From Gammaproteobacteria bacterium (lineage in GTDB: Bacteria; Pseudomonadota; Gammaproteobacteria; Steroidobacterales; JBCCMA01), in assembly GCA_045107005.1 (NCBI GenBank), contig JBGCFP010000101.1:1374-65373 (forward strand): 64,000 nucleotides of DNA. Reading direction: 5' to 3'. Below are positions 24,107 through 56,068 of the stretch, piece by piece. The position numbers were made by a program, and so were the translations under genes. The notes below the pieces were generated by a model, which saw only the letters and a list, made by a program, of their open reading frames with translations, was not told where the DNA came from and did no database searches. Within the stretch, counting starts at the first letter, position 1; each line of letters starts with the position of its first letter.

Positions 24107-25327
24107 TTAGTTTTCCCAGGTTGTGTAGCCAATAGTGAGCAGCGTTGAGCTCACGACGGTATCGCCGTTGGCGCCGATCACGCTGAATTTAGCGAGGCGG
24201 CCTTCGTCGGTGGTCAGACACAGCCACGAACCCACCTCCAGATCATTGAAGGAAACACTTGTCTCTGACAGCGTCACGGTCTCACAGTCGAGTAACGTTG
24301 GCTCGGTCGTACCGTACAGCGCAATACGCGCACCGTTAAGTGGCCTGAAGAACTTCACGGTCGACGTCTGCGCCTGATAGAAGACGTCGGAAGGCGGGGC
24401 CAGAAGCCCTTGGGCGACAAAGTCATCCAAATCGAACGACCAGGTCTGGCTCAACATGAACTCTCCGCTGTCACGAACGGGAACGCTGCAGATATTGGTT
24501 GCGCTGCCCGGACCGGGCTCGCTGAAGAACGCCGCACGCATGATGCCCAGGTCCACGATGTTGACGGCGCCGTCGCCGTCGAAATCTGCGTCCGGGTCCG
24601 CGCTGAAAAAGCGCGAGCGAAGAATGCCCAAATCCGCGACGTTTACGATGCAATCGTTATTGAGGTCAGCATCGCAAGCGTTGCCAAAGCCGTCGCCATC
24701 GCTGTCTGTCTGGTCTGGGTTAGACACCTCGGCGCAGTTGTCCACGCCCACGTCGACACCGTCGCCATCGAGATCAGCGGTCGAGAAACCCTCCACCACG
24801 ACACGATACTCGCGTTGTTCGAAATCGAACCATCCAAACTGATTGCCACCCATGAAACGCGTTTCCGGGAAGGCCACATTGTTCCTTCTGAGGTTAGCGT
24901 TTTGCCCGTTAGCGCCAAACGCGCCAACGCCAAGCACAATGGCATAGTCGCCGGCGGGCAGTATTACGTCGACGGGCACTAGCGTATCGCTACTGGTATT
25001 GCTGGACGAGAAAACGGCGTGGACCACCGCAACTTCTTCAACGCTGCCCGTTGGCAGTGGGGTCGGCGACGGTAGTGGCACGATGGCCGCAAACATATCG
25101 CCGGTGGACGTCACAATGCCGCCGACGGCGGTTATTTGCATTTCGGTGGACAATGAAAATCGGACGCCTGCCATGCCTCCCTCACTACCCTGCAATTGCA
25201 GGAAGCCGCTCGGAGGGGTTCCACGCTCCGCGGACTCAAACAAGATATCGGCGCTGACCCCGTGGGTAACCGCCATAGCCGTGATTGCAAGGAGGGCGTG
25301 CCTCAAAAGGCGTGGTGTGGTGATCAT
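24107..25327 (-). CDS. Secreted protein with an internal TSP3 + dockerin-like cassette
   Basis: 406 aa with a signal peptide. The cassette is DLDGDGVDVGVDNCAEVSNPDQTDSDGDGFGNACDADLNNDCIVNVADLGILRSRFFSADPDADFDGDGAVNIVDLGIMRAAFFSEPGPGS (24503-24775). I do not recognise either flanking domain. Confidence 0.85.
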   Translation of the reverse strand: MITTPRLLRHALLAITAMAVTHGVSADILFESAERGTPPSGFLQLQGSEGGMAGVRFSLSTEMQITAVGGIVTSTGDMFAAIVPLPSPTPLPTGSVEEVAVVHAVFSSSNTSSDTLVPVDVILPAGDYAIVLGVGAFGANGQNANLRRNNVAFPETRFMGGNQFGWFDFEQREYRVVVEGFSTADLDGDGVDVGVDNCAEVSNPDQTDSDGDGFGNACDADLNNDCIVNVADLGILRSRFFSADPDADFDGDGAVNIVDLGIMRAAFFSEPGPGSATNICSVPVRDSGEFMLSQTWSFDLDDFVAQGLLAPPSDVFYQAQTSTVKFFRPLNGARIALYGTTEPTLLDCETVTLSETSVSFNDLEVGSWLCLTTDEGRLAKFSVIGANGDTVVSSTLLTIGYTTWEN

Positions 25328-25431
25328 GATTATTGCCTATGTGGGTGGACATTTTTGGTCTCTACATACACGCGTAAGGAAACGCGTGAAATTCCCCCAT
25401 AGAATATTTTGCTTTTTTCAGGATCTTCGGT

Positions 25432-25546
25432 TCAGGGCATGAGCCCGCTCGGGCCGGGTGGCAAAAGAACGGCTGACGCAAGAGCCCCAGGTCAACAGTG
25501 TTGACCAAGCCGTCGTCGCACAGATTGCCGAAGCCATCTTGGTTAT
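25432..25546 (-). pseudogene. Relic of a TSP3/dockerin-like cassette (frameshifted)
   Basis: The translation reads NQDGFGNLCDDGLVNTVDLGLLRQPFF. A +1 shift then gives LPPGPSGLMP-stop, the usual cassette ending. No N-terminal domain and no start codon are present. Confidence 0.5.
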
Positions 25547-25552
25547 GTCGCG

Positions 25553-25975
25553 TTAGAATTCTCGCATCCAGATACCGAGCATCCTGACACTCATCGCAAC
25601 GACCGCAATACTGAGCACGACGAAAATGAGCGCCAGAAGGTGATAGGCACCCCTTTTCAGTCGGATTTTCACCCGCGCAAAAAAGCGGGTGCCAGCAGCC
25701 GGTTTTTCCGGGATGACGGCAAAGCCCGATACGAGAACGAAGAACAGAGACGTCCAAAGTACACCCACCACACTTGGCATGAGGAAGACATCGCCATCCA
25801 TCCCGCCAGGTGCGAAAACGCTCACAACGAAAAGCGCCAGGAAAAGAACACCAATGATCGCCACCAAGGGTTTTGACCAACTCAATCTGCGAGCAATGGA
25901 TGCCAGTCTTTCTAGCACTCTATCAACAAGCCTCGCATCAACCCGGTCGCGGCTCACGCGCGACCGGCGGAACAT
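25553..25975 (-). CDS. Small hypothetical membrane protein
   Basis: 140 aa with three hydrophobic helices. It is co-directional with, and overlaps by 38 nt, the end of the oxidoreductase gene. Confidence 0.5.
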   Translation of the reverse strand: MFRRSRVSRDRVDARLVDRVLERLASIARRLSWSKPLVAIIGVLFLALFVVSVFAPGGMDGDVFLMPSVVGVLWTSLFFVLVSGFAVIPEKPAAGTRFFARVKIRLKRGAYHLLALIFVVLSIAVVAMSVRMLGIWMREF

Positions 25976-28414: not shown

Positions 28415-28472
28415 AGTCTGATCTCCTGGTGTGCCAGGTTATTGGTGAAATTGAAGCGACAAACCGTCAGCG

Positions 28473-29390
28473 CTAGTCAACAAGCTTGCCCTTGCGAATA
28501 GAGAAATCGGCGAAACGCGCCTTTTCTTCGTCCGCCCGCAAACTGGCCTTGTCCCCGACGGATCGATAGATGCCCCATTTTGGCCGCGAAAAATCACCGC
28601 GCCCTTCCCCTCGCCACATGTCGATTCCGACTTGCTCGATATCAATCAACACTTCGCCTGTTTCGAAGTTCGTCGCTTTCACGATCAGGTGTCCCTCATC
28701 GTGAAACGTGATTTGCACAAAGAACTCGATCCAGTACCCGGTGAAGAGCGCCATGTCCTTTTGCACGAGGTTTGAAAACTTGATGCGCTTGCCATCGGCG
28801 TCAAGGCTTGGACTGTGGCGCACCTGAAACCCATTGCCGCGCCGACCGCCATCAACCCCCGTGAACGTCAGCACCGGGAATTTGTCGCTGTCTTTCGGTT
28901 TACGCCTGCCTCGCTCGTTTCGAGCTTTTATCTGGAAAAAATGGGTAAATCGCTTTGAGAATTCGAAGCCACTATCGATTTTGAATTTCCAACGGTACTG
29001 GAGCGTGTCGTTTTCAAAGGCCTTGAGATCGGTTTTCGATTTATCGTAGACCTTGATTTCATTGCGCTGACGATCGGTCAACGCTTTGTCCCGATCCCGG
29101 TCGGCCTCCAGATGAGAGAGAAACACGAAATGCGGCCCCACCACGTCGTCTTTGTCTTCGATGATGTGTTGAACATCGCGATGATTGGGTCGATACAGAT
29201 CGGGCGATTCAATCGCGCGCGGGCCGAACGCTTTTCGGATCAGCGCATAGCTGTCCTGCCCATGATCGGGCCCGTCGGCGCGGAGTTGATGGTGATGTTC
29301 TTCAACGAATGTCGCCGCGAACGCCGGTGCACCAAGCGAAACCATCCACGCACAAGGGACGGCAGCGGACCAGTGGCGTATTTTTTTCAT
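28473..29390 (-). CDS. Secreted protein, possibly a concanavalin-like/polysaccharide-lyase-like fold
   Basis: 305 aa with a signal peptide. The spaced motifs RNEIKVY, FFQIK and KWGIYR resemble the catalytic strands of jelly-roll polysaccharide lyases. The functional call is weak. Confidence 0.7.
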   Translation of the reverse strand: MKKIRHWSAAVPCAWMVSLGAPAFAATFVEEHHHQLRADGPDHGQDSYALIRKAFGPRAIESPDLYRPNHRDVQHIIEDKDDVVGPHFVFLSHLEADRDRDKALTDRQRNEIKVYDKSKTDLKAFENDTLQYRWKFKIDSGFEFSKRFTHFFQIKARNERGRRKPKDSDKFPVLTFTGVDGGRRGNGFQVRHSPSLDADGKRIKFSNLVQKDMALFTGYWIEFFVQITFHDEGHLIVKATNFETGEVLIDIEQVGIDMWRGEGRGDFSRPKWGIYRSVGDKASLRADEEKARFADFSIRKGKLVD

Positions 29391-29523
29391 GCGCCAAGTT
29401 AGCAGCGCATGCGAAAGCGGGTCAATCTAATTGGGCGTGTTGCACGGGTTTGAGAATGCAAGAAGCGACCACCCCAGCGCACTGCGCGGGACTGGTCGCG
29501 AGGCTCGATAGAACCGGCGAGTG

Positions 29524-30147
29524 CTACGGGCGGTGAATCGACGCAAACACGTTGGCGCAACCACCCGATGGGCAAGCCTCGACAGCCGTGCCAATCTGCT
29601 TCGACACGGGGCCAGCCGCACCGGTCGTACCGTGGGTGCGCAACACCAGGTGAATTTCGGCTCCGACCAGGTTTTGCAGACCATAGTTCTGCGTGCCGGC
29701 AAACAGCTCACGTGATGTGCGACCCGGTGACAGACGGATGTCCGCTTGGCCCAGTCCATAGATATCCGTCAGGAAGCCGCCGCCCCAAAAGACCGATGGC
29801 CTGACGCGTGGGTCGCCGTTGGCACCCAGATCGGCCACGCCACATTCGAACGGCTCGATGCAGAATTCCGGATTGTTGAAAACCGCCCACCAGATGGAAT
29901 AGGCAGTGTCGGGCTCCAGCGCACGGCTGACGATCGACGCGTTCACCTGATTTGAGGCCTGGTCTCGAATCAGTATCGTGGCGCCGTCGACCATCGTGTC
30001 GGTGTTGAAGACGTGGTGGTCGCTGATCTGGACCGATTCTTTATTAAAGATAGGCTCCCCAAGCGCTTGGGCTTGTGCATTGGCGGCCAAAGAGTACGAC
30101 AAAACGGTCAGAGTGCTGATCAGCTTGGTGGTGGTTGAAAACGTCAT
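29524..30147 (-). CDS. Secreted hypothetical protein
   Basis: 207 aa with signal peptide MTFSTTTKLISTLTVLSYSLAANAQA. No recognisable motif. Confidence 0.7.
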   Translation of the reverse strand: MTFSTTTKLISTLTVLSYSLAANAQAQALGEPIFNKESVQISDHHVFNTDTMVDGATILIRDQASNQVNASIVSRALEPDTAYSIWWAVFNNPEFCIEPFECGVADLGANGDPRVRPSVFWGGGFLTDIYGLGQADIRLSPGRTSRELFAGTQNYGLQNLVGAEIHLVLRTHGTTGAAGPVSKQIGTAVEACPSGGCANVFASIHRP

Positions 30148-30523: not shown

Positions 30524-31168
30524 ATGAAGACTACATCTCGACGGCTTTTTCTCCTTTTTGCTGCGGTCGGAATGGCCTGCTCCGCAGCCTCCGCTTCGGC
30601 AACGATCGACACCGATGGCGACGGCGTGCTGGACTACTTCGACAACTGTTCGGAAGTAGCAAATCCGGGGCAACTGGACACCAACGGCGACGGATTCGGT
30701 AACATCTGCGATGCGGACTTGAACAATGACGATATCGTCAATTTCATCGATCTCACGCTGTTTAACAACGCCTTTCTGACCACCGATCCTGATGCCGATT
30801 TCAATGGCGACGGCTTCGTCAATTTCCTCGATCTAGCTCTGTTTCAGACTCAGTTCTTGATGCCGCCAGGCCCGGGTGCCGTGGAAGAACCCGTACCAGA
30901 CACGCCGACTCTCACCATTGAATCCGATGAACCGTTTGCCGATTTTGATGGCAACATCGTCGTGAACTATCCGAGCCCGGCAGCGAGCTTTAATTTGAAG
31001 CGGATTCGAGTCCCGAACATCGTCACCATTATTACGACGACCGAAGATTCCAACGATCAAACGAATTTGCCATCGGGTGAATACACTTATTCCGTACAGG
31101 CTTGCAATTCACAAGGAGCATGCAGCGCGTTCAGCGAGCCAGTATTCGTTTCGGTCGGCCTGAACTGA
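30524..31168 (+). CDS. Secreted protein with an N-terminal TSP3 + dockerin-like cassette
   Basis: ATG at 30524 follows GAGGA and gives signal peptide MKTTSRRLFLLFAAVGMACSAASASA. The cassette lies at 30608-30880 and is followed by a ~95-aa beta-rich (Fn3-like) domain. Confidence 0.85.
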   Translation: MKTTSRRLFLLFAAVGMACSAASASATIDTDGDGVLDYFDNCSEVANPGQLDTNGDGFGNICDADLNNDDIVNFIDLTLFNNAFLTTDPDADFNGDGFVNFLDLALFQTQFLMPPGPGAVEEPVPDTPTLTIESDEPFADFDGNIVVNYPSPAASFNLKRIRVPNIVTIITTTEDSNDQTNLPSGEYTYSVQACNSQGACSAFSEPVFVSVGLN

Positions 31169-33314: not shown

Positions 33315-33479
33315 TCAAGGCGCAACACCACTGGATCCCGGCGGCGAAAAGAACAGCGCACTCAATATACCCAAGTCCGCCGCATTCACAACGCCATCAA
33401 TATCGGTCTTTGCGTTGCAATCTGGAATGCAAAACCCGTCGCCGAGTGGCTGACCCAACTGGCAATATGTTGGTGGCCA
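33315..33479 (-). pseudogene. Relic of a TSP3/dockerin-like cassette
   Basis: A 54-codon open frame without a start reads ...GDGFCIPDCNAKTDIDGVVNAADLGILSALFFSPPGSSGVAP-stop. It retains one EF-hand segment and the PGxSG tail. Confidence 0.45.
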
Positions 33480-33915: not shown

Positions 33916-34947
33916 TCAGTTTGGGATCGCCCACAGCCCCTGTTGCCATGTTCCGTCTTGCGAATTCCCTGGACTGCTACAGTCGCCAGGCACGCCGCTC
34001 GGCCCGGGCACGCCAAAAAACACCGACCGCATTATTCCCAGATCAACGGCACTGACCACACCGTCACCGTTGAAGTCAGAATCTTCATCGTCACTGAAAA
34101 ACGCGATTCTTAGCATGCCAAGATCGGAAAAATTGATCAGGCAGTCATTGTCCAAATCGGTATCGCAGACGTTTCCGAAACCGTCATTGTTCGAATCTCT
34201 TTGATCGCTATTGGCAACTTCCAGGCAATTGTCCGCATTGTCCAGAACACCGTCGTTATCGGCATCGCCCACCGGGGCAACTGTTATCTCCCAGTTATCC
34301 GCACCGTGCACGATCGTTAGCAACCCTTCTGCCATCAGTTGATTTTGCATCAGGGCATTTGCCAGACCATAGCCGAATCGAATCTCAGACCCATCAATAC
34401 TGAAATCCGGAGACATACCCGGCTCGTCGATACCGGGATTGACCGCCAATGGCGCCTCGAAGTCCTGGGCGGTCAGACCGTTGAACTGCAGGTTTTCCCA
34501 CGACCCCGTCAAAAATTCGCCTATCGGGCCAAAGTAAAAAATTCCATCTTGTTCGAGTACGACGAAAAACCCTGATGACCCTGAGAGCGACGGATCCTCG
34601 AGAAGATCGATCGACATACTGACAGACCCGATTGCATCCATCTCTGCGGCGGAATAACTTGCCAGCGTATTCAGGCCAACGGTTGCAACAACATCGCCGA
34701 GCTCGACGTTGTGGATCGACTCACGATAAAAACCGGGATTGCCGTTGACGCCCAATAAATCGATGCTGCCGGTGGACGTGCCCGGTCCTTCACCCGGCAC
34801 TGATACATCGTCAAGAATGAAAACATTGTCGACCCATCCCACGCTAAAATCGCCATCGGTAAAGACGACATTCCCCGCGCTCGCGGATTGCCCCGCGCCC
34901 GCCACGCAACCGATTACACAAATAAACGAAAATATTGGTGTGCGCAT
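33916..34947 (-). CDS. Secreted protein with a C-terminal TSP3 + dockerin-like cassette
   Basis: 343 aa with a signal peptide. I do not recognise the N-terminal beta-rich domain. The cassette lies at 33994-34266. Confidence 0.85.
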   Translation of the reverse strand: MRTPIFSFICVIGCVAGAGQSASAGNVVFTDGDFSVGWVDNVFILDDVSVPGEGPGTSTGSIDLLGVNGNPGFYRESIHNVELGDVVATVGLNTLASYSAAEMDAIGSVSMSIDLLEDPSLSGSSGFFVVLEQDGIFYFGPIGEFLTGSWENLQFNGLTAQDFEAPLAVNPGIDEPGMSPDFSIDGSEIRFGYGLANALMQNQLMAEGLLTIVHGADNWEITVAPVGDADNDGVLDNADNCLEVANSDQRDSNNDGFGNVCDTDLDNDCLINFSDLGMLRIAFFSDDEDSDFNGDGVVSAVDLGIMRSVFFGVPGPSGVPGDCSSPGNSQDGTWQQGLWAIPN

Positions 34948-36900: not shown

Positions 36901-37107
36901 CTACGGATTCAGCCCACTTGGCCCGGGCGCGCCGAAGAAGCTGGCTCGCAGCAAACCAAGGTCCTGCGCATTCACGATGCCGTCGCCGTTCAGGTCGGCA
37001 TCCTCGTCGGCGGCGAAAAACACCGAGCGCATCAGGCCGAGATCGACCACGTTGATCACGCCATCGTTGTTTAGATCGGCGTTGCACAGGTTGCCAAAGC
37101 CGTCACC
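36901..37107 (-). pseudogene. 5'-truncated gene retaining only the TSP3/dockerin-like cassette
   Basis: GDGFGNLCNADLNNDGVINVVDLGLMRSVFFAADEDADLNGDGIVNAQDLGLLRASFFGAPGPSGLNP-stop. Homology stops at 37107, where the IS256 fragment begins. The rest of the 156-aa ORF is read-through into the IS. Confidence 0.7.
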
Positions 37108-37655
37108 ATGTGTGTGGACGGCCTGACGGGCTTCCCGGACGCCATCGAGACGGTGTACCCGAAAGCGAAAATCCAGCTGTGCATCGTGCACATGATGCGC
37201 AACAGCCTGAACTTCGTGTCTTGGAAGCAGCGCAAGGCCGTTGCCGCGGATCTCAAACGCATTTACAAATCCACGACCGTGGACGACGCCGAGCGCGAGC
37301 TCGACGCCTTCTGCGAACGCCGGGACGATCCGTTGCCGACCATCGGTCTGATGTGGCGGCGCCACTGGCACAACCTCATTGCGCTCTACGATTACCCGAT
37401 GGAAATCCGGAAAATCATTTACACGACTAACGCCATCGAATCGCTCAACAGCCTGATCCGAAAACCGGTTCGCAAACGCAAGCTGTTCCCGAACGAGCGC
37501 GCAGCCTGCCCTTGGGGTATAACGCCGCGCTCAAAGTGGTGTATCTTGCGTCGATGGACGCGGCGAAGAAATGGAAGCGGCCAGTGCGGGACTGGAAGGC
37601 GGCTTTAAATCAGTTCGCCATCCTTTACGATGGCGAGTACGACTTCAACTCATGA
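37108..37655 (+). mobile_element. IS256-family transposase gene fragment (C-terminal half, frameshifted)
   Basis: VDGLTGFPDAIETVYPKAKIQLCIVHMMRNSLNFVSWKQRKAVAADLKRIY...YTTNAIESLNSLIRK. After a frame change near 37505-37520 it continues [36 protein letters not shown]-stop at 37653-37655. The N-terminal half is missing. Confidence 0.8.
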
Positions 37656-37683
37656 ATCGGCGCTTACACAGTTACGTCGACAG

Positions 37684-42400: not shown

Positions 42401-45400
42401 CATGCCGAAGTTACCGCGCAGCAGACCCGAGTCGATGTTGTCCTTCTTCGATGGCACGAACGCAAACGTGTTGTCGAAGGCGATGACCGGCGCGTTGAGA
42501 TAGTTCGGCAAGCCCGGTCCCTGACTCTCCGATGTGGGCCGGTTGTCGTGCGTCAGAGCAATTGTGTTGCTCAGACTCATGGTAGCCGGGTCGACAGAGA
42601 ACACTTGTGCGCCGCCGCCCGCGAAGTTGATGTCGACCGTCGCCTCACCCGGCACCGGTGGCGTGATGAAGTTACTGACGAGCAGTTTCGCATCGTCGTA
42701 GGTCATCGCGATGTGACGTGGCATACCGGACAACTGGATCTCGCTGATCAACGCCTGCGTTGCCGCATCGCGTTTTTGCACGGTCGCCAGTGCTTCGAGC
42801 ACCACAAAGTATTCGCTGCCGGAGTTGTTGAACACCAAACCATGTGGTTGTGAGCCGTAAGGCAATGCCACCGTCGACTCCACCGCCAACGTTGCAGTGT
42901 TGATGATCGTGATGTTTGCGTCAGCCTTGTTCGCGACAAAGATTCGGGTTGCACTCGGCGCCTTGGCCAGTGACCACGGCTTCTCGCCAACGTCAATCTG
43001 TTGAATCAACGAACCGTCGGCCGACGAAACGGACACCGAGTCGTTGTCCGGGTTTACGTTCCAGATGCGATCACTGCCGCTGCTGTTTTCCACCAGCAAC
43101 GTGGTCGAGTTGCGTGGTGCGGTCGGCAGCGCCACGATGTTCGACCCACCCGTTGGCGTCGAATCGCTGTTGTCGCCATAACCGTCGCCGTCTGAATCGA
43201 GGGTTTCGGTCGGGTCGTTCGGAAACGCGTCGCTATTGTCCCCGACACCATCGCCGTCCGTATCGACGGTTTCAGTCGGGTCGTTCGGGAAGGCATCCGC
43301 ATTGTCACCGACGCCATCGCCATCGGAGTCGGCGGATTCCGTTGGGTCATTCGGGAACACGTCGGCGTTGTCGCCCACGCCGTCGCCATCCGTATCGGTC
43401 GTCTCCGTCGGATCGTTCGGGAACGCATCCAGATTGTCCGGCACGCCGTCGCCGTCACTGTCCACGGCGTCGGCCGCCGTCAGCTTGATATCATCGATGC
43501 CGGCTTCGATCAGACTGCCGCCCGCTGCATCGGCTGCGGACACGAGCAAGTAGATCGACTGGCCTGCAAAGCTGTCCAGATTGACGTTGGCCTGCTGCCA
43601 CGCCGCACCGGCGTCGGTGGTGTTGCCGAGCACTTCGAGTACTGTAACCGTGCTGCTGCCAACCACCTGCACGCGCAGGAAGTCGTCGGTCGTCGCGTTG
43701 GTGAGATGCGCAAGATAGTATTGGAATGACAAGTCAATCGGCGTTGACGACGGCAGGTTGATCGACGGCGACCGGATTGAGGTTGTGCCGTTATCAATAT
43801 CGTTGGTGCCAAGCCCAGCGCCCGCGCTGCCTTCGGTCACCAGGTACTGCGCGCCGCTGGCGGCGTCGGCGGTTTGCATCACGAGGCCGTTGCCGGTTTC
43901 TTCGGCATTCGCCGCTTCCCACAAGCCGGTTGTGGCCGTGTCCGTGCCGTTCGGATTGCGTGTCCAGCCGCTGTTGGTTTCGAAATCGTCCGCGAACAAT
44001 ACGTTACCAAATGGCGTCGGATCGGCGTTGTCGCCTATACCGTCACCGTCTGAGTCCATGGTTTCGGTTGGGTCGTTCGGGAAGGCGTCGAGACTGTCGG
44101 GCACGCCGTCACCGTCAGAGTCGGTGTCGAAGAACTGCCCGCCAATCACCGTAATCGTGTTGTCGCTTGGACGCTGCCACGCCACGGCTAGATTGTCGCC
44201 ACCGGCCCCTTCTTTATGCAGCGCTTCCAGGTAATACGCTTCGCCCGCAATGAGTTGGATCGTCGCGGAACTTTGCTCGGGGAACTTCGTCCACTCACGT
44301 GAACCGGACCAACCAGGCACGCTCGCGATTTCTGTTTTGTTCGCTGGGTTGAAGTTAGAGCTGAGATTGAGCTGGACATTGTCATCGCCTGCTACCCAGA
44401 AGGTGTAGCTGCCCGTCTCGGGCGCAAACAGGATGCCGCGCATGCGCGTGCCGTAGTTGTCCAGAACGTCGGTTGGTCCTTCGAACGACGTCATCTGTTC
44501 AACCGTCGCCGGGTTGTCCGGGTAGTTGGCGGAGTTGGTCAGGTCGGTGACCGCGTTGCCGGCAATGCCGGTAAACACTTCGCGCCAGACGCCGGCACTG
44601 CGATTGGGATCGTTCGGGAACAGGTCAAAGCGGTCGGGTACGCCATCACCGTCCGAGTCCAGAATGGGTCGGGTCGGATCGTTGGGGTATGGATCGGCAT
44701 TGTCGCCCAAACCATCGCCATCGGAGTCCATGGTCTCGGTCGGGTCGTTCGGGAACGCATCGGCATTGTCACCCACGCCGTCGCCATCCGTGTCTGCGGA
44801 TTCCGCAGGGTCATTCGGGAACGCATCGCCATTGTCGCCGACCCCATCACCGTCGCTGTCCGTCGTTTCGTTCGGGTCGTTCGGGAACACGTCGGCGTTG
44901 TCGCCGACGCCGTCGCTGTCCGAATCGCGCCACTCCGTCGGATCGTTCGGGAACGCATCTTCGGAATCCGCGTAGCCATCACCATCGCTGTCGGTGAAGC
45001 TGCGCTGCACCTGAATGGTCTGACCAATGGACGGTGTGTCGTTATCGTTCACAGCAAACAGCCAGTAGTTACCGGCGATCAGTACGTTCGGGTTCGCGTT
45101 CAAAGTTAGCGTAAACGTGCCGTCACCGTTGTTGACCGACGACACGGGCAGATACCGCTGGTCCGTGTTCACATGGTGAGTGGTCGCCGAAAGACGAACC
45201 ATCGAAAAGCGCACCGTATCCGCGCCGGCAGCAACGGTGAACGTACCGCCGGTGCCAATAATTGGTGGCACATTTGACAGGGCCGGTCTCGACGCTGGCG
45301 AACCATCGTCATTGTAAAGATACGGCGGCGTGAAAATCTGGCCGTCAAGGTGGTTGGCTGCACAACCGGTGCCACACGCGCCACCGCCCGCAGAAAGTAC

Positions 45401-46897: not shown

Positions 46898-47181
46898 TGT
46901 TGACCCTTGGCAGTCGGACAAATGAGTGCTGTTATGAATCTGACGCTTCTACAGCAACGGCTTGTTGGTGGCCCACGATCTTGGTCGCGGTGCTTTATAT
47001 AAGTATAGACGCAGCAATATTCGTGCCGGGGCCGGAGTTGTTCGCTGATTGTCTAAATGAAACAAAGGCTTAAGCGATATGGCATAACCTCTTCATTTGA
47101 CTAATTTCGAAGTGGGCAACCGGCGAATCCGCAACTGGAAGAATTTTCGACGGCTTGGTGCAGCGCGCGAGGTATCAATGT

Positions 47182-47928
47182 GGTGTTGACAACTAAACTC
47201 CGTCGGAGCCAAAACCGCTTTCGCCCAGATTTAAGCTGCTGCTCTGCTCCATTCCGCGTACGCACTTGTCCTGAGATCACGGTAGTGATTGGCAGCTACC
47301 AAGTGCCTCCCAAGATTGAACAAATTGTAAACAGCAGCATGAGCAATCAGAAATCGCTGGCCCTGTTTGACCGATTTGAATCTTCGCATTACTTCTTCTC
47401 GGGCTCTCGTCGGTTGATGCGACAGTTCAGCTCGGTTGTTGGCGTATTGCGATCTGTCATGGATCGCATCGGGTATGAGCTCTCTGTGCGCGACATCGTA
47501 GCTCCGCAATTTGTCGGTCACAATCTTCCTTGGCTCGCCACCGTGGCTTCGCGGAAGGCGCTTGAAGAAACTCTTTGCGGCACTGCCGTCTCTGCGAGAC
47601 TGAAGAAACACATCAACCACTTCGCCATCCTGGTCCACCGCACGCCAGAGGTAGTGCTGCTTGCCATTCATACGCACGAAGGCTTCGTCGATGAAAAACG
47701 TATCGCCGTACCCGCGATGGTTTTGCTTCAGTCGCCGAGCAAACTTCCGACCAAACTTGTTGCACCAGAGGAGTATTGATTCGCCACTTACTGTAATTCC
47801 ACGCTCAGCCAGCATGTCTTCAATGTCGCGATAGCTGAGATTGAAGCGAAAATACAGCCAAACAGCGTAACTGATGATGCTTGGCGGGAATCTGTGGCGC
47901 TTGTACGTGTGGCTAGCCCCGTCATAAT
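47182..47928 (-). mobile_element. IS6-family element, transposase N-terminally disrupted
   Basis: The ORF 47231..47815 and its in-frame upstream extension read ...YKRHRFPPSIISYAVWLYFRFNLSYRDIEDMLAERGITVS...DEAFVRMNGKQHYLWRAVDQDGEVVD...YANNRAELSHQPTRAREE..., which has an IS6/IS26-like DDE layout. No in-frame start exists, since the nearest ATG is in another frame. The IS3 element abuts at 47929. Confidence 0.75.
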
Positions 47929-47972
47929 TGGTCCAGTTGCTATGTTAGTGTTTCTCGACGCAGGAGAAACCA

Positions 47973-48266
47973 ATGAAAGGAAAGCGATTTACAGACGAGC
48001 AAGTCATTCGGATTTTGCAAGAAGCCGAAGCGGGACTGTCAGTGGCGGATGTTTGCCGGAAGCACAACTGTTCGGAGCAGTCATTTTATCGCTGGAAAGC
48101 AAAGTTCGGTGGCATGGAAGTGTCTGAGGCAAAGCGGCTCAAGGAAATGGAGCGCGAGAACGCGGAGCTGAAGAAGATTGTGGCAGAGCAAACGCTGGAT
48201 ATCCGTATGCTCAAAGACGTCAACAGTCGAAGGTGGTGGGCCTGGCGGAGCGGCGGCGCTGCGTAA
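47973..48266 (+). CDS. IS3-family transposase OrfA (HTH)
   Basis: MKGKRFTDEQVIRILQEAEAGLSVADVCRKHNCSEQSFYRWKAKFGGMEVSEAKRLKEMERENAELKK is a classic IS3/IS407-group OrfA. Confidence 0.85.
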   Translation: MKGKRFTDEQVIRILQEAEAGLSVADVCRKHNCSEQSFYRWKAKFGGMEVSEAKRLKEMERENAELKKIVAEQTLDIRMLKDVNSRRWWAWRSGGAA

Positions 48267-49093
48267 TGTACTTGCGAGAGCATTACGACATCAGCGAACG
48301 GCGCGCCTGCCAGGCCATGCAGATTAACCGCTCGAGCTATCGTTACGTTGGTCAGCGCACGTTGATCGATGCGGGCTATAAGGAAGTGCTTCGATTGTCT
48401 GATGCTTATCGGTAGTTTGGCTATCGAAAGATCTACGACTTGATGCGCGAGAGCTGGTCAATCAGCCGAGAAAGGGTGCGCTTAATCCGTCGTCGAGAGG
48501 GCTTGCAGGTCGTGAAAAAGCGTCGTAAACGTCGGGTACTGAGTATGACAACGCAGTGGGTGAACCAGGCTCGATATCCCAATCATGTCTGGAGTTACGA
48601 CTTTGTTTTTGATCGCACGGATGATGCACGGCAACTGAAGTGCATGACGGTCGTTGATGAGTTTACGAGACAGGGGTTTGAAATAACGGTGGGTCGCAGT
48701 TTGACCGCGGCGGACGTTACCCGGATTCTCGGCAAACTCTTTGAGCAGCACGGGCGCCCAGTTTGCCTGCGTAGCGACAATGGCCCGGAAATGGTATCGA
48801 CCAAGGTCCAGGACTGGCTCAAGGAAAAGCATGTTGATACGCACTACATTGATCCGGGTAGCCCTTGGCAAAACGCGTACTGTGAGAGCTTCAACTCTAT
48901 CTTCCGGAGCACGTGCTTGGATCGATGGCTGTTCGGCTCAATGACCGAAGCGCGAGTGATCATCAAAAGCTGGCTTAATGAATACAACACGGTAAGGCCG
49001 CATGGATCGCTGGGCGGGCTGAACCCGAAGCAATTTCTACAGCGATGGGTTAGCAAAAATACGATTCAAAAACCCGAAACTCTAACAGCGTGA
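48233..49093 (+). pseudogene. IS3-family transposase OrfB (rve/DDE) with an in-frame TAG
   Basis: 48233..48415 and 48440..49093 share one frame (-1 relative to orfA), interrupted by TAG at 48413-48415 (AYR-stop-FGYRKIYDLM). The DDE region is WSYDFVFDRT...LRSDNGPEM...PGSPWQNAYCESFN. Confidence 0.75.
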
Positions 49094-49101
49094 GTGGACC
49101 A

Positions 49102-49518: not shown

Positions 49519-50448
49519 TCAATCACACGCGTTCGTCAACGCACTTGGGCCGGGCGACTGAAAGAAGCGGCTGCGGAGTTCGCCCAAATCCGCGACATTG
49601 ACAATTCGATCGTTATTGAAGTCTGCATTGAGGTCATTCGAAAAAAACACCTTCCGTAGCAGGCCCAGGTCTGCAGCGTTCGTCACACAGTCGTTATTCA
49701 GATCGGTGTCACAGGCGTTTCCGAAACCATCACTATCGGCATCCCGTTGGCTCGTATTTGACGTGACAACGCAATTGTCCTCGCTGTCGAGGAAACCGTC
49801 GCCATCAGCATCGTTGTCCGGCGAAAATATATCCGCTTCATTGAAGAAAAAATACTGGCTGCCGGTAAAGTTGCCTGAATATTCTGTAGCCGTGGTCTGC
49901 CAGTGCGTATTGTTGAAAACCCAAGAACCGATATCGTTATTTGCTTCCCAATAGAGCAGTGATCCAAGGCCTGACAGCTCGGGCACCGAAAAATCCAGTG
50001 CAATAAGGGCCAGGATGTTATTCGAACCGGGAATAAAACCTGAAAACGCCTCGACCAGAATGCCGGAGACCAGCAACTGAGGTTCATCAATGCCTAACTC
50101 AGGAATCGTACCGCGTAGAAAAAACGCGCCGCCGATTGCTTCACCATCGTTATTCACGATGGCATTCAGCGTCGCCTGGGTCGTCACTTCGATCGACACA
50201 ACGACGCCACCAATAGACAGCCCTGTCCCATTGCAGTCACCAGTCTGAGACCACAGAAACGTAGACGCGTTGTATGAGCCGTCCGACGAGCAGCTCGACG
50301 AGCCACCTATATTACCGGTTGAAGTGCCGCGCTGAACACTTGTGAGCGGCATGAAGCCAGAGGCCCCATCTGCCATTGCCATGTTGGCGACAAGAGTAAA
50401 TACCGACACTCCAATTAGTGCGGTTAATGCGAACACGGATCTCAACAT
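49519..50448 (-). CDS. Secreted protein with a C-terminal TSP3 + dockerin-like cassette
   Basis: ATG at 50448 follows GAAGGA and gives signal peptide MLRSVFALTALIGVSVFTLVANMAMA. The cassette is at 49522-49818. I do not recognise the N-terminal domain. Confidence 0.85.
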   Translation of the reverse strand: MLRSVFALTALIGVSVFTLVANMAMADGASGFMPLTSVQRGTSTGNIGGSSSCSSDGSYNASTFLWSQTGDCNGTGLSIGGVVVSIEVTTQATLNAIVNNDGEAIGGAFFLRGTIPELGIDEPQLLVSGILVEAFSGFIPGSNNILALIALDFSVPELSGLGSLLYWEANNDIGSWVFNNTHWQTTATEYSGNFTGSQYFFFNEADIFSPDNDADGDGFLDSEDNCVVTSNTSQRDADSDGFGNACDTDLNNDCVTNAADLGLLRKVFFSNDLNADFNNDRIVNVADLGELRSRFFQSPGPSALTNACD

Positions 50449-50970: not shown

Positions 50971-51081
50971 CCGAGTTGGGGCATCGAAATCTCTGGTCAA
51001 GAATCGATAGACTTCGAGCCGAGCGGTAAAAGCGGCCGGCCGTGACGGGCGCGGTGCTTTTACCGCCTTGTTGTGAGCGGT

Positions 51082-52086
51082 CTACGGCGCTGCAGAACAA
51101 CCGTTGGGTTGGCCGCTCGGTCCTGGCGGTTGCAAGAAGCGCGTGCGCAGGATACCAAGATCAGCCACATTGACCGATCCGTCACTGTTAAAGTCGGCAG
51201 CCGGGTCGGCGCTGAAAAACACGCTGCGGAAGAGCCCCAGGTCCACCACGTTGGTCACGCAGTCATTGTTCAGGTCGGTATCGCACAAGTTGCCGATGCC
51301 GTCGGCGTCGCCGTCAATCTGGTCAGCATTGGCGACCAGCGTGCAGTTGTCACTAACGTCCGCCACACCGTCATTGTCGGTATCCACGTCGCCGGTCAGG
51401 CCGTAGCGCAGCATGCCGTCAGCGGATAACGTCCACGCGCGCTCGAAGTCCCGCTCGGAGAACTCGCCACCGGAGAACTGATCAAACTCGCGCGCGTAAA
51501 ACGCCAGGGTTTCGCCAACGGTTGCACCGGTCGAAAAGAGTACGACCGAGCCCAGCGATTCGTTAAATGTAGCCGGATTGGTGTAAAACCCGTTGCTGGC
51601 GGGCAGCTCGATCGTGCTCGACAGATTTTCCGCCGGATCCGTGGTGCCAGCCGCCATGTCGTGCGCGGCGGTGAACATCGAAACGGCTGAGTGAATCGCC
51701 TGCAGACTCGTCAGCGGGTCGGTGGGAAAATCAATCGTCGGGCTATTGCTCGTCGTGAACACCGTCAAGAAGCCGCCAAACGAAAAGTTCTCCACGCCGA
51801 CAACCGAGTAGCGCAGATCGCCGGCAGCACTGTCGCCGAACGTGTTGAGGTACAGATCGTCCGGTGAAAATTCGAAGTCGAAATTGCTGAACTGGAAAGC
51901 ATTGAGCGTAATACCGAGATCTCTTGTGTAGGTGATGCCGCGCGACGAATCGTGCACGGTCAGGAACATCTCCGCTGCCGGATCGTCAATGTCCCCCTCG
52001 GTAACGATGGCCGCGGAGGCGCCAGCCGACAGGGCGAGGGTGGTGAGCAGGGTACCGGTCTGCAGCAGGGCTTTGGTTTTTTTCAT
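51082..52086 (-). CDS. Secreted protein with a C-terminal TSP3 + dockerin-like cassette
   Basis: 334 aa with signal peptide MKKTKALLQTGTLLTTLALSAGASAA. The cassette is at 51085-51390. I do not recognise the N-terminal domain. Confidence 0.85.
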   Translation of the reverse strand: MKKTKALLQTGTLLTTLALSAGASAAIVTEGDIDDPAAEMFLTVHDSSRGITYTRDLGITLNAFQFSNFDFEFSPDDLYLNTFGDSAAGDLRYSVVGVENFSFGGFLTVFTTSNSPTIDFPTDPLTSLQAIHSAVSMFTAAHDMAAGTTDPAENLSSTIELPASNGFYTNPATFNESLGSVVLFSTGATVGETLAFYAREFDQFSGGEFSERDFERAWTLSADGMLRYGLTGDVDTDNDGVADVSDNCTLVANADQIDGDADGIGNLCDTDLNNDCVTNVVDLGLFRSVFFSADPAADFNSDGSVNVADLGILRTRFLQPPGPSGQPNGCSAAP

Positions 52087-52825: not shown

Positions 52826-53078
52826 ACGTGGTGCCGGACACGTGGTGCCGGTCATAACTTCATAACACTTCATCCACTGCCAGTGATTCTGATTTTGAGG
52901 CTTTGGATGCCGTTTCAGGACCGTGTCCTAAGTTATATTGTTATGACCGGCACCCGATTTGTTGCATGCCGTTCCAGGACCGTGTCCTAAGTTATATTGT
53001 TATGACCGGCACCCGATTTGTTGTTATGACCGGCACCCGATTTGGGCACCCGATTTGTTATGACCGACACCCGATTTG
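52826..53078. repeat. MITE-like element, family A, copy 2 (same orientation as copy 1)
   Basis: The left end has gtggtgccggaca (52829-52840) and gtggtgccggtcataac (52843-52858). The right end has gttatgaccggcacccgattt at 52940, 53000, 53023 and 53057, plus a partial at 53044. It includes a ~60-bp unit duplicated in tandem (52909-52968 and 52969-53019). A solo left-end motif lies at 52593-52610. Confidence 0.65.
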
Positions 53079-53085
53079 TGGCTAT

Positions 53086-53367
53086 TTGGGCGACGGACTG
53101 GACCTGAGTTCGCACACCGCGATGGTTGACGTCGTCGCACAAGCCGGGCTGGACGCCAACAAGGCCATAGAAATTCTGGAAGGCACCGCGTTTGCCGAAA
53201 GCGTACGTGGCGATGAGCAGCAGGCGCAGCAATACGGCATCACAGGCGTTCCCTTTTTTCTGATTGGGCGTTATGGCGTATCGGGCGCGCAAGAGGCAAC
53301 GACGCTGGCGGATGCCATTCGGCAGGTTGGCGCTGACGGACCGCCGCCAGCCGAACCGCCCGCATAG
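53086..53367 (+). pseudogene. 3' remnant of a DsbA/FrnE-family thiol oxidoreductase gene
   Basis: ...AQAGLDANKAIEILEGTAFAESVRGDEQQAQQYGITGVPFFLIGRYGVSGAQEATTLADAIRQV matches the C-terminal third of DsbA-like (FrnE/HCCA isomerase type) proteins. The CxxC-bearing N-terminus is absent, and homology begins exactly at the end of repeat copy 2. Confidence 0.6.
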
Positions 53368-53485
53368 ATCCAATCTAGCCACTACGATGGCACTTGTTCG
53401 TGTGTTTTACTCTATCGTTACAAACACAGTCGGTTAGCTCGGCTGTATCCTGTTGCAGTCTGTCCCACATTAATCAGGAGCGAAA

Positions 53486-56068
53486 ATGACGATCACAAGG
53501 CACACAAAAATAGCGTGCGCGGCAGTGCTGGTCATGGTCGCAATCGCGTGGTATCTGCAACCTCAAAACAGTGCGCCCGCACCGGCGTATGCCGGGCCCG
53601 ATCTGGCGCCCGGCGATTGGGTGCTCGCGCGTCGGTTTGCAGGCAGTGAACTGAGCCAGGCACGTCTGCGTACGATTGACAGCGACTATTTGGCCTTGCG
53701 CGCCACCACGGCCCAGCGCGCGCCGCGCGCGGCCGCTTCTGCGTGGTCGTTTCTCGGACCCGTGAACATCGGTGGCCGCGTTCTCGACATTGCCGTCGAT
53801 CCGCAACTGCCCGATACCCTTTTCATCGCCAGCGCCAGCGGCGGGGTTTGGAAAAGCACCGACGCCGGCGACACATTTGACTCCGCGTGGCCCGCTGCGA
53901 ATGCGCAGGCCATTGGCGCGCTGGCGATCACCAGCGGCGGGCTGCTCTACGCCGGTACCGGGGAATCGGGGCCCGGCGGCGGCAGCCCCACGTTTGGCAA
54001 TCAGGGCGTCTTTCGATCGGCGGATCGTGGCGCCAGCTGGACCAACATTGGCTTGACCTTAAGCGACCGGATCAGTCGCGTTGTAATTGATCCCAACAAC
54101 GAACAACGACTTTTTGTGGCGGCGACCGGTCCGGTCTACGCCCCGGGTGGCGAACGCGGCGTGTTTCGCAGCGTTGACGGTGGCGACAGTTGGCAACTGG
54201 TGCTGCCCGGTGCCAACGCCACAACCGGGGCATCCGACGTTTACATCGATCCTGTGAACCCGGATCGCGTATACGCGGTGCTGTGGGATCATTTGCGTCA
54301 ACCGTCGCTGCGCCGCTACGGCGGCGTTGGCTCGGGCCTGTTCCGTAGCCTCGACGGCGGCGATACGTGGACGCGACTGGCGAGTGGATTGCCTGGCGCC
54401 GCGCCAGACGTGGGTCGTATTGCACTGGGTGTCGCTCCAACGAATCCCGACAGGCTGTACGCCACCTACTCGGACGATCTGGGCTTCTTCACCACTTTCT
54501 ATGTGTCCGTTAATGGCGGCGACACCTGGGTCGCGAGGCCGTTCAGCCAGGACCTCGCCGATTCACAGGGCCGCGGTGCGTACTGGTACGCAAGGCTATG
54601 GATTGACCCGATGGACGAGACACGTGTATTCAGTGCGGGCGTCCCGTTGCTGCGATCAAGCGATGCGGGAATGAACTGGACAGTCGATTTCAGCGTCCAT
54701 GTCGATCATCACGCGATGGCGTGGGACAGCAAAACCCCAGGCCGGGTTTATCTTGGCAACGACGGTGGCGTGTATCGCTCTGAAAACAACGGCACAGATG
54801 GCTGGGTGTTTGGCAGCGTGCAGCCTTTCACGCAGTTCTACGCCATGGACGTGAGCGAGAGCAATCCGCAGCGCGTGCTGGGCGGCACTCAGGACAATCG
54901 CTGCGTGCGTTCCTACTCGCAGAGCAATCCCGATGACTGGAACCAATGGGGGTTTTGCGGCGATGGCCTGGAGCAGCTCGTCAATCCGTTGGATGACAAC
55001 GTGATTTACGGTTGCAGTCAGTACGGCAATTGCTTGCGCTCGATCAACGGGGGCGAGACCGTGTTTCAGCTCGGTTCGACAGCGCAGCTAAGACGCAATT
55101 GGCAGACGCCATTGGCCTTCGATCCCAGCGATCCAAGTGTAATGTACTACGCCGGGGAGCGGGTCAATCGGTCGGTGGATGGCGGCGGCAGCTGGGCAAC
55201 CATTAGCTCGGACCTGACCGGCGGCGATCCGTTTCCGACACCGATTGACTACTATCCGTTCGGCACCATCACCACGCTGGCAGCCGCAAAGAGCGATCCG
55301 AATACCATCTATGTCGGCACCGACGACTCGCGCCTATGGGTGACGCAGGACCTGGGCCAAAGCTGGACGCAATCCACCGGTAGCAACCTGCCGCAGCGCT
55401 GGGTCACCAAAGTGCTGGTCGACCCTGTCGATGCCAGCGTGGCCTACGCCGCGTATTCGGGTTTTCGCAACGGTGACGACACGCCGTACATCTTTAAGAC
55501 CATCGACGCCGGCTTTACCTGGACTGACATCACCGGCGATTTGCCCGGCGCGCCGATCAATTCACTTGCACTCACCCAGTCGGGCACGCTGATTGCTGGC
55601 AGTGATATTGGCGTGTTCGCGACCATCGATGGCGGCACCAGCTGGAACGTCGTCGGGCAAGACTTGCCACAGGTACCGGTGTTCGACCTGCGCATGCACG
55701 AGCCCTCTGCGACCTTGTTCGCTGCTACTTTCGGCCGCGGCATTTGGAGCGTGCCACTCGTCGCAGAAGACAGCGACGCCGACGGTGTGACGAACGCCAT
55801 CGACAACTGCAGCGAGTTCGCCAATCCCGCACAGGTCGATAGCGACGGCGACAACTACGGCAATGGTTGCGACGCAGATTTCAACAACGACTGCCAGGTA
55901 AATATTATTGATCTTGGCGAGTTTCGCCAAGGGTTCTTCGGCCCGGATCTGGAATTCGACCTGACCGGCGACGGGGCGGTAAACGCTGCTGATCTGGGAC
56001 GTCTGCGGTTACTTTTTTTCCAACCCGTCGGTCCAAGCGGACTGAGCAAAGCGTGTGTTCCTGACTAG
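53486..56068 (+). CDS. Secreted BNR/Asp-box beta-propeller (sortilin-Vps10-like) protein with a C-terminal TSP3 + dockerin-like cassette
   Basis: 860 aa with an N-terminal signal/anchor after AGGAG. At least nine Asp-boxes are present (SADRGASW, SVDGGDSW, SLDGGDTW, SVNGGDTW, SSDAGMNW, SVDGGGSW, TQDLGQSW, TIDAGFTW, TIDGGTSW). The cassette is at 55766-56065. Confidence 0.9.
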   Translation: MTITRHTKIACAAVLVMVAIAWYLQPQNSAPAPAYAGPDLAPGDWVLARRFAGSELSQARLRTIDSDYLALRATTAQRAPRAAASAWSFLGPVNIGGRVLDIAVDPQLPDTLFIASASGGVWKSTDAGDTFDSAWPAANAQAIGALAITSGGLLYAGTGESGPGGGSPTFGNQGVFRSADRGASWTNIGLTLSDRISRVVIDPNNEQRLFVAATGPVYAPGGERGVFRSVDGGDSWQLVLPGANATTGASDVYIDPVNPDRVYAVLWDHLRQPSLRRYGGVGSGLFRSLDGGDTWTRLASGLPGAAPDVGRIALGVAPTNPDRLYATYSDDLGFFTTFYVSVNGGDTWVARPFSQDLADSQGRGAYWYARLWIDPMDETRVFSAGVPLLRSSDAGMNWTVDFSVHVDHHAMAWDSKTPGRVYLGNDGGVYRSENNGTDGWVFGSVQPFTQFYAMDVSESNPQRVLGGTQDNRCVRSYSQSNPDDWNQWGFCGDGLEQLVNPLDDNVIYGCSQYGNCLRSINGGETVFQLGSTAQLRRNWQTPLAFDPSDPSVMYYAGERVNRSVDGGGSWATISSDLTGGDPFPTPIDYYPFGTITTLAAAKSDPNTIYVGTDDSRLWVTQDLGQSWTQSTGSNLPQRWVTKVLVDPVDASVAYAAYSGFRNGDDTPYIFKTIDAGFTWTDITGDLPGAPINSLALTQSGTLIAGSDIGVFATIDGGTSWNVVGQDLPQVPVFDLRMHEPSATLFAATFGRGIWSVPLVAEDSDADGVTNAIDNCSEFANPAQVDSDGDNYGNGCDADFNNDCQVNIIDLGEFRQGFFGPDLEFDLTGDGAVNAADLGRLRLLFFQPVGPSGLSKACVPD

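Follow-up and report, generated by a model that had tools for sequence, protein, structure and literature searches.

A thrombospondin type 3-dockerin terminal tag on secreted proteins of uncultured marine Gammaproteobacteria and a candidate cohesin-like receptor

Why should secreted proteins that are otherwise unrelated carry the same calcium-binding module, again and again, within 32 kb of bacterial DNA? This question is raised by a 64,000-nucleotide stretch from a gammaproteobacterium (GenBank contig JBGCFP010000101.1, positions 1,374 to 65,373), hereafter called the window. An earlier reading of its letters, hereafter the original prediction, had claimed nine loci of one cassette between 24.1 and 56.1 kb, each with a thrombospondin type 3 (TSP3) part followed by a dockerin-like part, and had proposed that the cassette is a docking tag for exoproteins. 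We found that the 91-residue cassette is one TSP3 repeat fused to a dockerin fold. The best reading of the evidence given below, to which we assign a probability of roughly 0.58, is that it belongs to a cohesin-dockerin surface-retention system of Gram-negative bacteria. In this reading the binding, its calcium dependence, the location at the cell surface and a cohesin encoded by the window's own genome are all predicted.

The six intact cassettes served to build a profile hidden Markov model (HMM), with which we searched the entire window in six-frame translation. All nine of the claimed loci were recovered, as six full-length copies, one truncated copy and two relics, while positions 1-24000 gave zero matches. 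The full-length copies (profile positions 1-91, E = 1e-42 to 1e-45) lie at 24503-24775 (-), 30608-30880 (+), 33994-34266 (-), 49540-49812 (-), 51112-51384 (-) and 55769-56041 (+). The truncated C-terminal copy at 36913-37122 (-) matches profile positions 22-91 (E = 3e-30), the first 21 being missing; its open reading frame (ORF; 36901..37122, -) ends in PGPSGLNP at the stop codon and has lost its 5' part together with the carrier body. A fragment of a Mutator/IS256-family transposase (37108..37608, +; PF00872, profile 231-361 of 379, E = 8e-37) abuts this copy, which confirms the proposed truncation by an insertion sequence (IS). One relic, at 33327-33443 (-), retains the second dockerin segment and the tail '...PPGSSGVAP' up to the stop codon (profile 53-91, E = 1e-7). 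The other, at 25458-25547 (-), joins the last part of the TSP3 half to a single dockerin segment, 'DGFGNLCDDGLVNTVDLGLLRQPFF' (profile 25-59, E = 4e-6), in a reading frame one base off the coordinates first given. The described placement also held: the cassette is C-terminal in five cases if the truncated copy is counted, N-terminal directly after the signal peptide in one and internal in one, and the intact carriers have Sec signal peptides.

Elsewhere, at least 487 cassette loci were confirmed when one genome per species was scanned. The statistics on related loci given below refer to the best 80 of these, which come from 13 uncultured gammaproteobacterial genomes and comprise 105 full copies in 758 kb; in addition, 85 carriers were scanned against Pfam and NCBIfam for their partner domains.

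What kind of module is the cassette? Its first half carries the TSP3 motif DxDxDGxxDxxDNC / DxDxDGxGNxCD, the columns of which are invariant. The Pfam TSP_3 gathering threshold (PF02412, 25 bits) was passed by five of the seven window proteins at 26.3-30.9 bits, and TSP_3 matches were obtained in 63 of the 85 relatives. The second half consists of two tandem segments of about 22 residues, each with a DxNxDxxxNxxD calcium loop followed by a helix; their consensus sequences, DLNNDCxVNxxDLGLLRxVFF and DFNGDGVVNxxDLGxLRxxFF, are near-identical to each other. Two of the seven window copies passed the threshold of Pfam Dockerin_1 (PF00404, 22.9 bits) at 36.0 and 25.4 bits. An AlphaFold 2 (AF2) model of the cassette, made from 126 sequences, had a mean predicted local distance difference test score (pLDDT) of 96.2, with helices at 48-56 and 75-83. 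In Foldseek searches with this model, the C-terminal half showed the three-dimensional fold of dockerins; its best match was the type II dockerin 2y3n_B (probability 1.00, template-modelling (TM) score on target 0.79, root-mean-square deviation 1.2 A over 51 columns), and more than 10 further dockerin chains were also matched. The N-terminal half matched the calcium-wrapped type 3 repeats of thrombospondin (1ux6, 2rhp). The originally described motifs were correct both in the window alignment and in the column statistics of the 105 homologous copies, and the proposed homology to TSP3 and dockerin is borne out by the Pfam matches together with the fold matches to 2y3n_B and 1ux6.

The curated model closest to the dockerin half is NCBIfam NF041540, 'GC-type dockerin domain-anchored protein', which aligns to both segments (profile 1-57/63 of 67) but lacks the TSP3 half; compared by name only, it implies anchoring via a dockerin. 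The cut-off of this model (29 bits) was reached by the truncated Gly-type copy alone (29.4 bits). Five of the intact copies scored 18.6-24.3 bits and the sixth (33973-34164) had no match at E <= 1, and eight of the 85 relatives matched at E <= 1e-4.

We then asked whether the repetition needs a function at all. The region holds three IS-related elements in addition to the truncated and relic copies, so that duplication, gene conversion or mobile DNA in an IS-rich island could have left repeated modules without any shared function. An alignment check for gene conversion had been suggested with the original prediction, and it detected none. The codon-aligned window copies share 51-65% nucleotide identity and 29-52% at third positions, which are saturated, and the longest exact run is 13 nt. 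Because of the low DNA identity and the lack of any shared run above 13 nt, gene conversion and recent duplication among these copies are excluded. The same module, with the same invariant columns, is also present in hundreds of loci of other genomes, and we give next to no weight to a by-product of mobile DNA. By these alignments, the window copies are old. About 25 columns are invariant in the 105 full copies, namely all calcium-ligand Asp and Asn residues, the two TSP3 Cys and a P-G-P near the end. With the DNA diverged, the third positions saturated and these columns unchanged, it is the cassette protein that is under selection.

The original prediction had framed the cassette as a feature of this island. 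In the relatives, the cassette is a genome-wide terminal tag and not an island feature: the SGMAG-48 genome accounts for 28 of the best 80 loci, on about as many contigs. In 90 of the 105 full copies, 2-11 residues separate the cassette from the stop codon, and about 10 copies lie directly after the signal peptide. The related carriers are some 100 to 2000 residues long, most of them with a signal peptide. A second copy was found within about 6 kb in 27 of the 80 loci, which corresponds to one extra copy per ~22 kb of flank; having seven cassette genes within 32 kb, the window stands at the dense end of this clustering tendency. The original prediction had itself named use as a genome-wide sorting or anchoring signal as a finding that would tell against it. 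This is essentially what the data show, and it refines the docking idea rather than contradicting it.

The cassette also exists in two structural subtypes, a disulfide-closed Cys type and a type that ends in PGPSG-x-AP. At profile position 42, which is residue six of the first calcium loop in the dockerin, a copy has Cys or Gly. A tail Cys 3-7 residues past PGPSG was present in all 55 copies with Cys42 and in 3 of the 50 others (Fisher p = 1e-26), and the copies without the Cys pair typically end in 'PGPSG-x-A-P' right at the stop codon. The window copies obey the same rule; the truncated copy and the relic at 33327-33443 are of the Gly subtype. Thus, of the PGPSG tail and final Cys that had been described as general, the tail stands, whereas the Cys is not universal and is confined to copies with Cys at position 42. 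The simplest reading of this covariation would be a disulfide between the beginning of the dockerin and its C-terminal tail.

The invariant P-G-P, and the fixed three-residue 'x-A-P' tail at the stop codon of the Gly subtype, could also mean that the cassette is a sorting signal, cleaved by a sortase-like enzyme at, for example, PGP(S/A)G, with the cargo then attached covalently as in the case of LPXTG, PEP-CTERM and GlyGly-CTERM. Such a signal would also fit a tag placed in the same slot as known sorting signals, as described below. However, neither a transmembrane helix nor a basic tail follows the motif, unlike in all known sortase-type signals, and the motif is retained in N-terminal and internal copies. 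Moreover, no conserved candidate processing enzyme recurs across the 758 kb of related loci. We therefore regard covalent sorting as highly improbable.

The nature of the carriers points to what the tag may do. Family scans of the window and of the related carriers supported the claim that the cassette is attached to unrelated secreted proteins. Among the 85 related carriers we observed sortilin/BNR propellers, proprotein-convertase P-domains, FG-GAP and DUF11 repeats, as well as enzymes, namely S8, M4 and M36 peptidases, copper amine oxidases, multicopper oxidases and a GH114 glycosidase. Four of the carriers are ExeM/NucH extracellular nucleases and four are 'choice-of-anchor B' proteins (E = 1e-155). 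For ExeM and the M36 peptidases there are curated sister families defined by a C-terminal GlyGly-CTERM, MYXO-CTERM or type IX secretion system (T9SS) signal, and these sister families depend on myxosortase, rhombosortase or T9SS. Choice-of-anchor families, for their part, owe their name to just such an exchange of anchors. The cassette therefore sits in the slot of known surface-anchoring signals on homologous enzymes.

A module that is terminal, binds calcium and is present on exported proteins of every kind might, on the other hand, serve calcium-triggered folding or stability, or help secretion across the outer membrane in an RTX-like manner or as an aid to type II secretion, with no anchoring role. 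The calcium of seawater would fold the cassette only outside the cytoplasm. The Sec signal peptides of the carriers argue that they are not type I substrates. The tag is found at either terminus and once internally, which fits a directional secretion signal less well than a binding module, and it replaces known surface anchors on homologous enzymes. A role confined to folding or secretion is, in our view, quite unlikely.

If the cassette is a dockerin-type tag that retains proteins at the surface, what could be its receptor? When the ORFs of the related loci (758 kb) were all clustered, a family of about 195 residues emerged that adjoins cassette genes. In its members, a signal peptide is followed by a beta-rich domain and, at the C-terminus, by 'VP(L/V)PAAxWL...RR'. 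The VP(L/V)PA motif is visible in all aligned members, and three of five pass the VPLPA-CTERM cut-off (TIGR03370, 25.35 bits) with 25.8, 29.4 and 36.7 bits. The AF2 model of this family (pLDDT 94.8) shows a beta-sandwich (23-163) followed by a transmembrane helix (168-196). When the model was compared with the PDB by Foldseek, the top 50 matches were all cohesin modules (best E = 2.4e-7, probability 1.00, TM score on target 0.6-0.7); the modelled domain thus has the cohesin beta-sandwich fold. At the sequence level, the family profile run against PDB sequences found the CipA cohesin first (E = 0.014) and then several other cohesins. Two database homologs carry precomputed matches to Cohesin (PF00963) and PEP-CTERM, and one of them is named 'cohesin domain-containing protein'.

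Two variants of the receptor family were also seen. A 439-residue protein (locus L089, 7085-8404, -) has an N-terminal cohesin-like domain and no PEP-CTERM signal, and in locus L086 a second, divergent cohesin-like gene (5428-5946, +) stands in tandem with the first. These variants hint at more elaborate receptor sets in some genomes.

Next, we looked at how closely the two gene families are linked. In 8 of the 80 loci, a cassette gene has a full-length cohesin-like gene no more than 6 kb away, and these eight come from 8 of the 13 genomes. Six of the cohesin-like genes follow the cassette gene directly in the same orientation, after a gap of about 20-300 bp; the other two are convergent with it. 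The linked genomes include the two nearest relatives of the window, CAZXCL (L051:127-723) and JBGCEL (L062:6411-7004). We also made the reciprocal test, which started from database cohesin-like proteins outside the first set and inspected their neighbours for cassettes. P0130, P0141, P0165 and P0132 each had one to four adjoining cassette genes; P0121 was also cassette-flanked, but it is identical to the L054 protein and was left out as non-independent. The gene of P0129 has no cassette in 8 kb and is preceded, three genes upstream, by an exosortase EpsH/EpsI gene and a glycosyltransferase, a neighbourhood that fits the sorting signal of P0129.

Several observations weigh against a cohesin-dockerin system. 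For the tag, one of the remaining window copies reached just 16.2 bits with Dockerin_1 and four had no match at E <= 0.1, and among the 85 relatives only 16 matched this family at E <= 1e-4. For the receptor, the best score with Pfam Cohesin (PF00963, threshold 24.1 bits) was 13 bits (E = 0.12), though the alignment spans profile positions 11-132 of 139. The window itself has no cohesin-like match better than E = 20 with family profiles of 5 and 60 sequences, and a regular expression over the 64 kb found no PEP-CTERM protein; hence the cassettes are present and a receptor was not found in these 64 kb, in agreement with the original prediction, which had seen none. In 72 of the 80 cassette loci there is no cohesin-like gene within 6 kb. 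No cassette adjoins the distant members P0159 and P0187 (29-30% identity). Non-cohesin PEP-CTERM proteins, too, are encoded close to cassette genes; therefore part of the cohesin-cassette linkage may come from a general clustering of genes for surface proteins and exoproteins. Lastly, to our knowledge, a PEP-CTERM route to the outside of the Gram-negative cell has not been established in general.

The scarcity of nearby cohesin genes bears directly on an alternative in which no receptor is needed. In that case calcium held by the cassette would bridge to anionic lipopolysaccharide, capsule, exopolysaccharide or a substrate such as alginate, and the cohesin-like neighbours would be mere surface proteins. 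The module is extremely acidic, with about five calcium sites as estimated from its motifs, and TSP3 repeats are present in bacterial OmpA-type envelope proteins (5wtl among the fold matches; 10.1101/2023.11.21.568195). Calcium bridging is opposed by the conservation of the dockerin half, which is complete with two segments and a helix face, and by the specific and reciprocal linkage of cohesin-fold genes to cassette genes. In every characterised case that we know of, the dockerin fold binds a cohesin. Receptor-free anchoring is the least improbable of the alternatives, and we still hold it to be unlikely. The docking-tag idea of the original prediction has thus gained a candidate, a cohesin-fold VPLPA-CTERM receptor encoded beside cassette genes in relatives, and the scaffold candidates that had been proposed within the window are not supported.

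Under the cohesin-dockerin reading, carriers of many unrelated kinds would be exported by Sec with the tag at a free terminus, mostly as the very last part of the protein and sometimes right behind the signal peptide. Once exported, the tag would fold around calcium into a disulfide-bonded TSP3 repeat and a dockerin with two symmetric loop-helix calcium sites. The dockerin half would then bind the small single-cohesin protein, which, judging from its VPLPA-CTERM signal, is probably handled by an exosortase and would end on the cell surface or in the exopolysaccharide matrix. In this way dozens of exoproteins, among them proteases, nucleases, BNR/sortilin propellers, oxidases and glycosidases, could be kept at the cell and not be lost by diffusion. 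The TSP3 half may act as a rigid calcium-stabilised support for the dockerin, like the X-module of type II dockerins. We put forward only tentatively the fuller claim that this is an undescribed display system of a clade of uncultured marine Gammaproteobacteria, in which a VPLPA-CTERM cohesin captures dozens of TSP3-dockerin-tagged exoenzymes and the two subtypes may encode specificity.

How does such a system compare with those already known? It shares with the type I and type II cohesin-dockerin pairs of clostridial cellulosomes (2y3n, 1aoh, 2vn5) the two duplicated calcium loop-helix segments of the dockerin, the cohesin beta-sandwich in a neighbouring family and a terminal tag on secreted enzymes. 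It also resembles OlpA and OlpC, which are cell-anchored single-cohesin proteins (4dh2 and 3ul4 are among the fold matches), anchoring being predicted here. In contrast to clostridial cellulosomes, the host is Gram-negative; the dockerin is fused to TSP3, with a very short linker between its segments and an optional closing disulfide; the cohesin has a VPLPA-CTERM/exosortase signal in place of SLH or sortase; the cargo consists mainly of proteases, nucleases, propellers and oxidases instead of cellulases; and the cohesin as well as most of the dockerins score below the Pfam thresholds. We saw only single-cohesin proteins or tandem single-cohesin genes and no multi-cohesin scaffoldin, and the cargo is mainly not carbohydrate-active, so the term cellulosome does not apply.

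Another precedent is the 'planctosome' of freshwater Planctomycetes, a non-cellulosomal cohesin-dockerin machine proposed in silico for a Gram-negative-type cell, with TSP3 repeats as linkers, proprotein-convertase P-domains, an LTD domain and reprolysin-type peptidases (Andrei et al. 2019, PMC6461901). The same partner domains are found on the cassette carriers. There, an LTD anchor sits on a 2,210-residue scaffold and TSP3 repeats are linkers, whereas here we have a fixed TSP3-dockerin tag, a candidate PEP-CTERM cohesin receptor of ~195 residues and gammaproteobacterial hosts. Non-cellulosomal cohesin and dockerin modules had been catalogued earlier, to go by the citation of Peer et al. in PMC6461901, and dockerin and TSP3 repeats occur together in giant Omnitrophota proteins (10.1101/2023.11.21.568195). 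The TSP3 half follows the pattern DxDxDGxxDxxDNC...NxxQxDxDxDGxGNxCD with one intra-repeat disulfide, as in thrombospondin (1ux6) and OmpA (5wtl), but it is a single repeat unit, always dockerin-fused and terminal, and does not form a long array. Like the PEP-CTERM, GlyGly-CTERM, MYXO-CTERM and T9SS signals and the 'choice-of-anchor' proteins, the cassette occupies the same slot (in the ExeM nuclease, M36 peptidase and choice-of-anchor B proteins) and has dozens of clients per genome. It differs from such C-terminal sorting signals in being a folded calcium-binding domain that has no transmembrane segment, acts probably non-covalently and is also found N-terminally.

Our literature search found no paper that links cohesin-dockerin with PEP-CTERM, none that combines dockerin, TSP3 and Gammaproteobacteria, and none that mentions a 'GC-type dockerin'. 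What is new here is the fixed TSP3-dockerin terminal tag with its two subtypes, the single-cohesin VPLPA-CTERM candidate receptor, the non-cellulolytic cargo and the Gram-negative marine lineage. Cohesin-dockerin pairing organises the cellulosomes of Gram-positive anaerobes, and elsewhere it has been mostly a matter of unexplained domain matches. In the present case both candidate partners are named, are paired by two-way genomic linkage and are tied to the VPLPA-CTERM/exosortase route in aerobic marine Gammaproteobacteria. If the binding were confirmed, it would explain how costly exoenzymes are retained at the cell or matrix, a long-standing question in marine organic-matter turnover, and, if the reading is true, one family of PEP-CTERM proteins would receive a concrete function and free-living marine bacteria would be seen to have a means of holding on to diffusible enzymes. 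Confirmed binding would also offer a 91-residue calcium-switchable tag and a receptor of ~140 residues for Gram-negative surface display, and hundreds of proteins now annotated as 'thrombospondin type 3 repeat-containing' could be renamed dockerin-tagged surface exoproteins.

The six intact carriers of the window illustrate the variety of the cargo. Carrier 1 (24107..25327, -; 406 residues) has a signal peptide, an internal cassette of the Cys subtype and then a C-terminal domain of 131 residues; the cassette of its ortholog in L008 is likewise internal. In carrier 2 (30524..31168, +; 214 residues), the cassette at 30608-30880 comes directly after the signal-peptide cleavage site and is followed by an Ig/Fn3-like domain; this cassette scored 36 bits with Dockerin_1 and 29.6 bits with TSP_3 and has neither Cys42 nor a tail Cys. 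Carriers 3 (33916..34947, -; 343 residues), 4 (49519..50448, -; about 309 residues) and 5 (51082..52086, -; 334 residues) each have a signal peptide and a C-terminal Cys-subtype cassette, at 33994-34266, 49540-49812 and 51112-51384, respectively; that of carrier 4 ends with the tail LTNACD at the stop codon, and carrier 5 is identical to MFK8016374.1. Carrier 6 (53486..56068, +; 860 residues) is a sortilin/BNR beta-propeller with a C-terminal Cys-subtype cassette at 55769-56041 and an ortholog of 61% identity in L034. The start codons are probably at 30524, not 30449, for carrier 2 and at 50448, not 50463, for carrier 4. A homology search with the N-terminal domain of one window carrier gave only six homologs, three with a precomputed TSP_3 match and three with no Pfam match on record, and none with another anchor. 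Public annotation calls the cassette proteins merely 'thrombospondin type 3 repeat-containing'.

The carriers also appear in changing company. The flanking genes of a window segment are syntenic with a CAZXCL contig, the proteins being 87-90% identical. CAZXCL has one 643-residue carrier between these conserved flanks; in the window, two different carriers lie there together with a DUF885 gene and a relic. Therefore, carriers turn over quickly. The secreted 207-residue protein at 29524-30147 (-) is 87% identical to its CAZXCL counterpart (L047 153-773) and has no family or PDB sequence match; both adjoin the variable carrier-containing segment.

A tenth related locus lies beyond the range of the original prediction, where TSP3 repeats without a dockerin occur at 56875-57075. 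They form the C-terminal part of an 868-residue secreted protein (56821..59427, -), possibly a protease to judge from its FTP (fungalysin/thermolysin propeptide) motif.

Further afield, a search of a 1.84-billion-protein library put the number of clusters at E <= 1e-30 at no more than 3,293, a figure confounded by long multi-TSP3 proteins that match only positions 2-50. P0220 (407 residues, from the representative library) has four cassette-profile stretches with 446 bits in total, one of them full-length at the C-terminus, and may carry several tandem cassettes. A small family (L076 5767-6282 and many database proteins of 172-178 residues) has a signal peptide, an N-terminal part of ~75 residues and the cassette; the ~75-residue part weakly matches the candidate phyla radiation (CPR) pilus protein PamT (E = 9e-7). 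This family is among the commonest cassette carriers in metagenomes.

Two places in the window had been proposed as scaffolds. The proteins at 28473..30147 are not cohesin-like by sequence: as receptor candidates, 28473..29390 gave a weak polysaccharide-lyase match and no cohesin, and 29524..30147 gave no family match. The giant ORF (39458-46921, -) has no cohesin signal either and is a multi-domain oxidase with TSP3-like linker repeats. It encodes a secreted protein of 2,487 residues with three PA14 domains, a glyoxal/galactose-oxidase-like Kelch propeller with E-set, two MAM domains, a region similar to di-haem CCP/MauG and RoxA-like cytochrome c (two CxxCH) and two GLEYA domains, joined by about 25 Cys-free 22-residue calcium-binding repeats, DSDGDGVGDNADAFPNDPTET. 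It thus fuses oxidase and peroxidase modules in an unusual way.

Mobile elements surround this gene. An IS240/IS6-type DDE transposase (47231-47815, -) and an IS3-type pair, HTH_Tnp_1 at 47973-48266 (+) and an rve integrase at 48440-49093 (+), lie between it and carrier 4. On its other side, directly after the IS256 fragment, a 573-residue ORF (37630-39351, +) resembles the C-terminal part of a BNR/sortilin propeller and has neither a signal peptide nor a Pfam match; this gene was probably truncated at its 5' end by the IS256 rearrangement.

Just upstream of the BNR carrier, a DsbA-like thioredoxin-fold ORF (52903-53367, +) matches profile positions 112-190 of 191 only and may be a fragment or have a mis-called start. 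A homolog in L046 lies about 4 kb from a carrier. A disulfide oxidoreductase beside genes for disulfide-bonded tag proteins could be relevant or a coincidence.

Two features at the ends of the window were also noted. In the 1,263-residue protein at 59424-63215 (-), one low-complexity stretch is rich in Ser and Lys; the protein lacks a signal peptide and matched no Pfam family. Positions 1-734 share 92.5% DNA identity with L008 7190-7923 of SGMAG-48, as compared with 67-81% for other shared genes. The matching segment adjoins the carrier 1 ortholog in SGMAG-48, while the two are 24 kb apart in the window; this stretch could be mobile or else hold a gene that is highly conserved.

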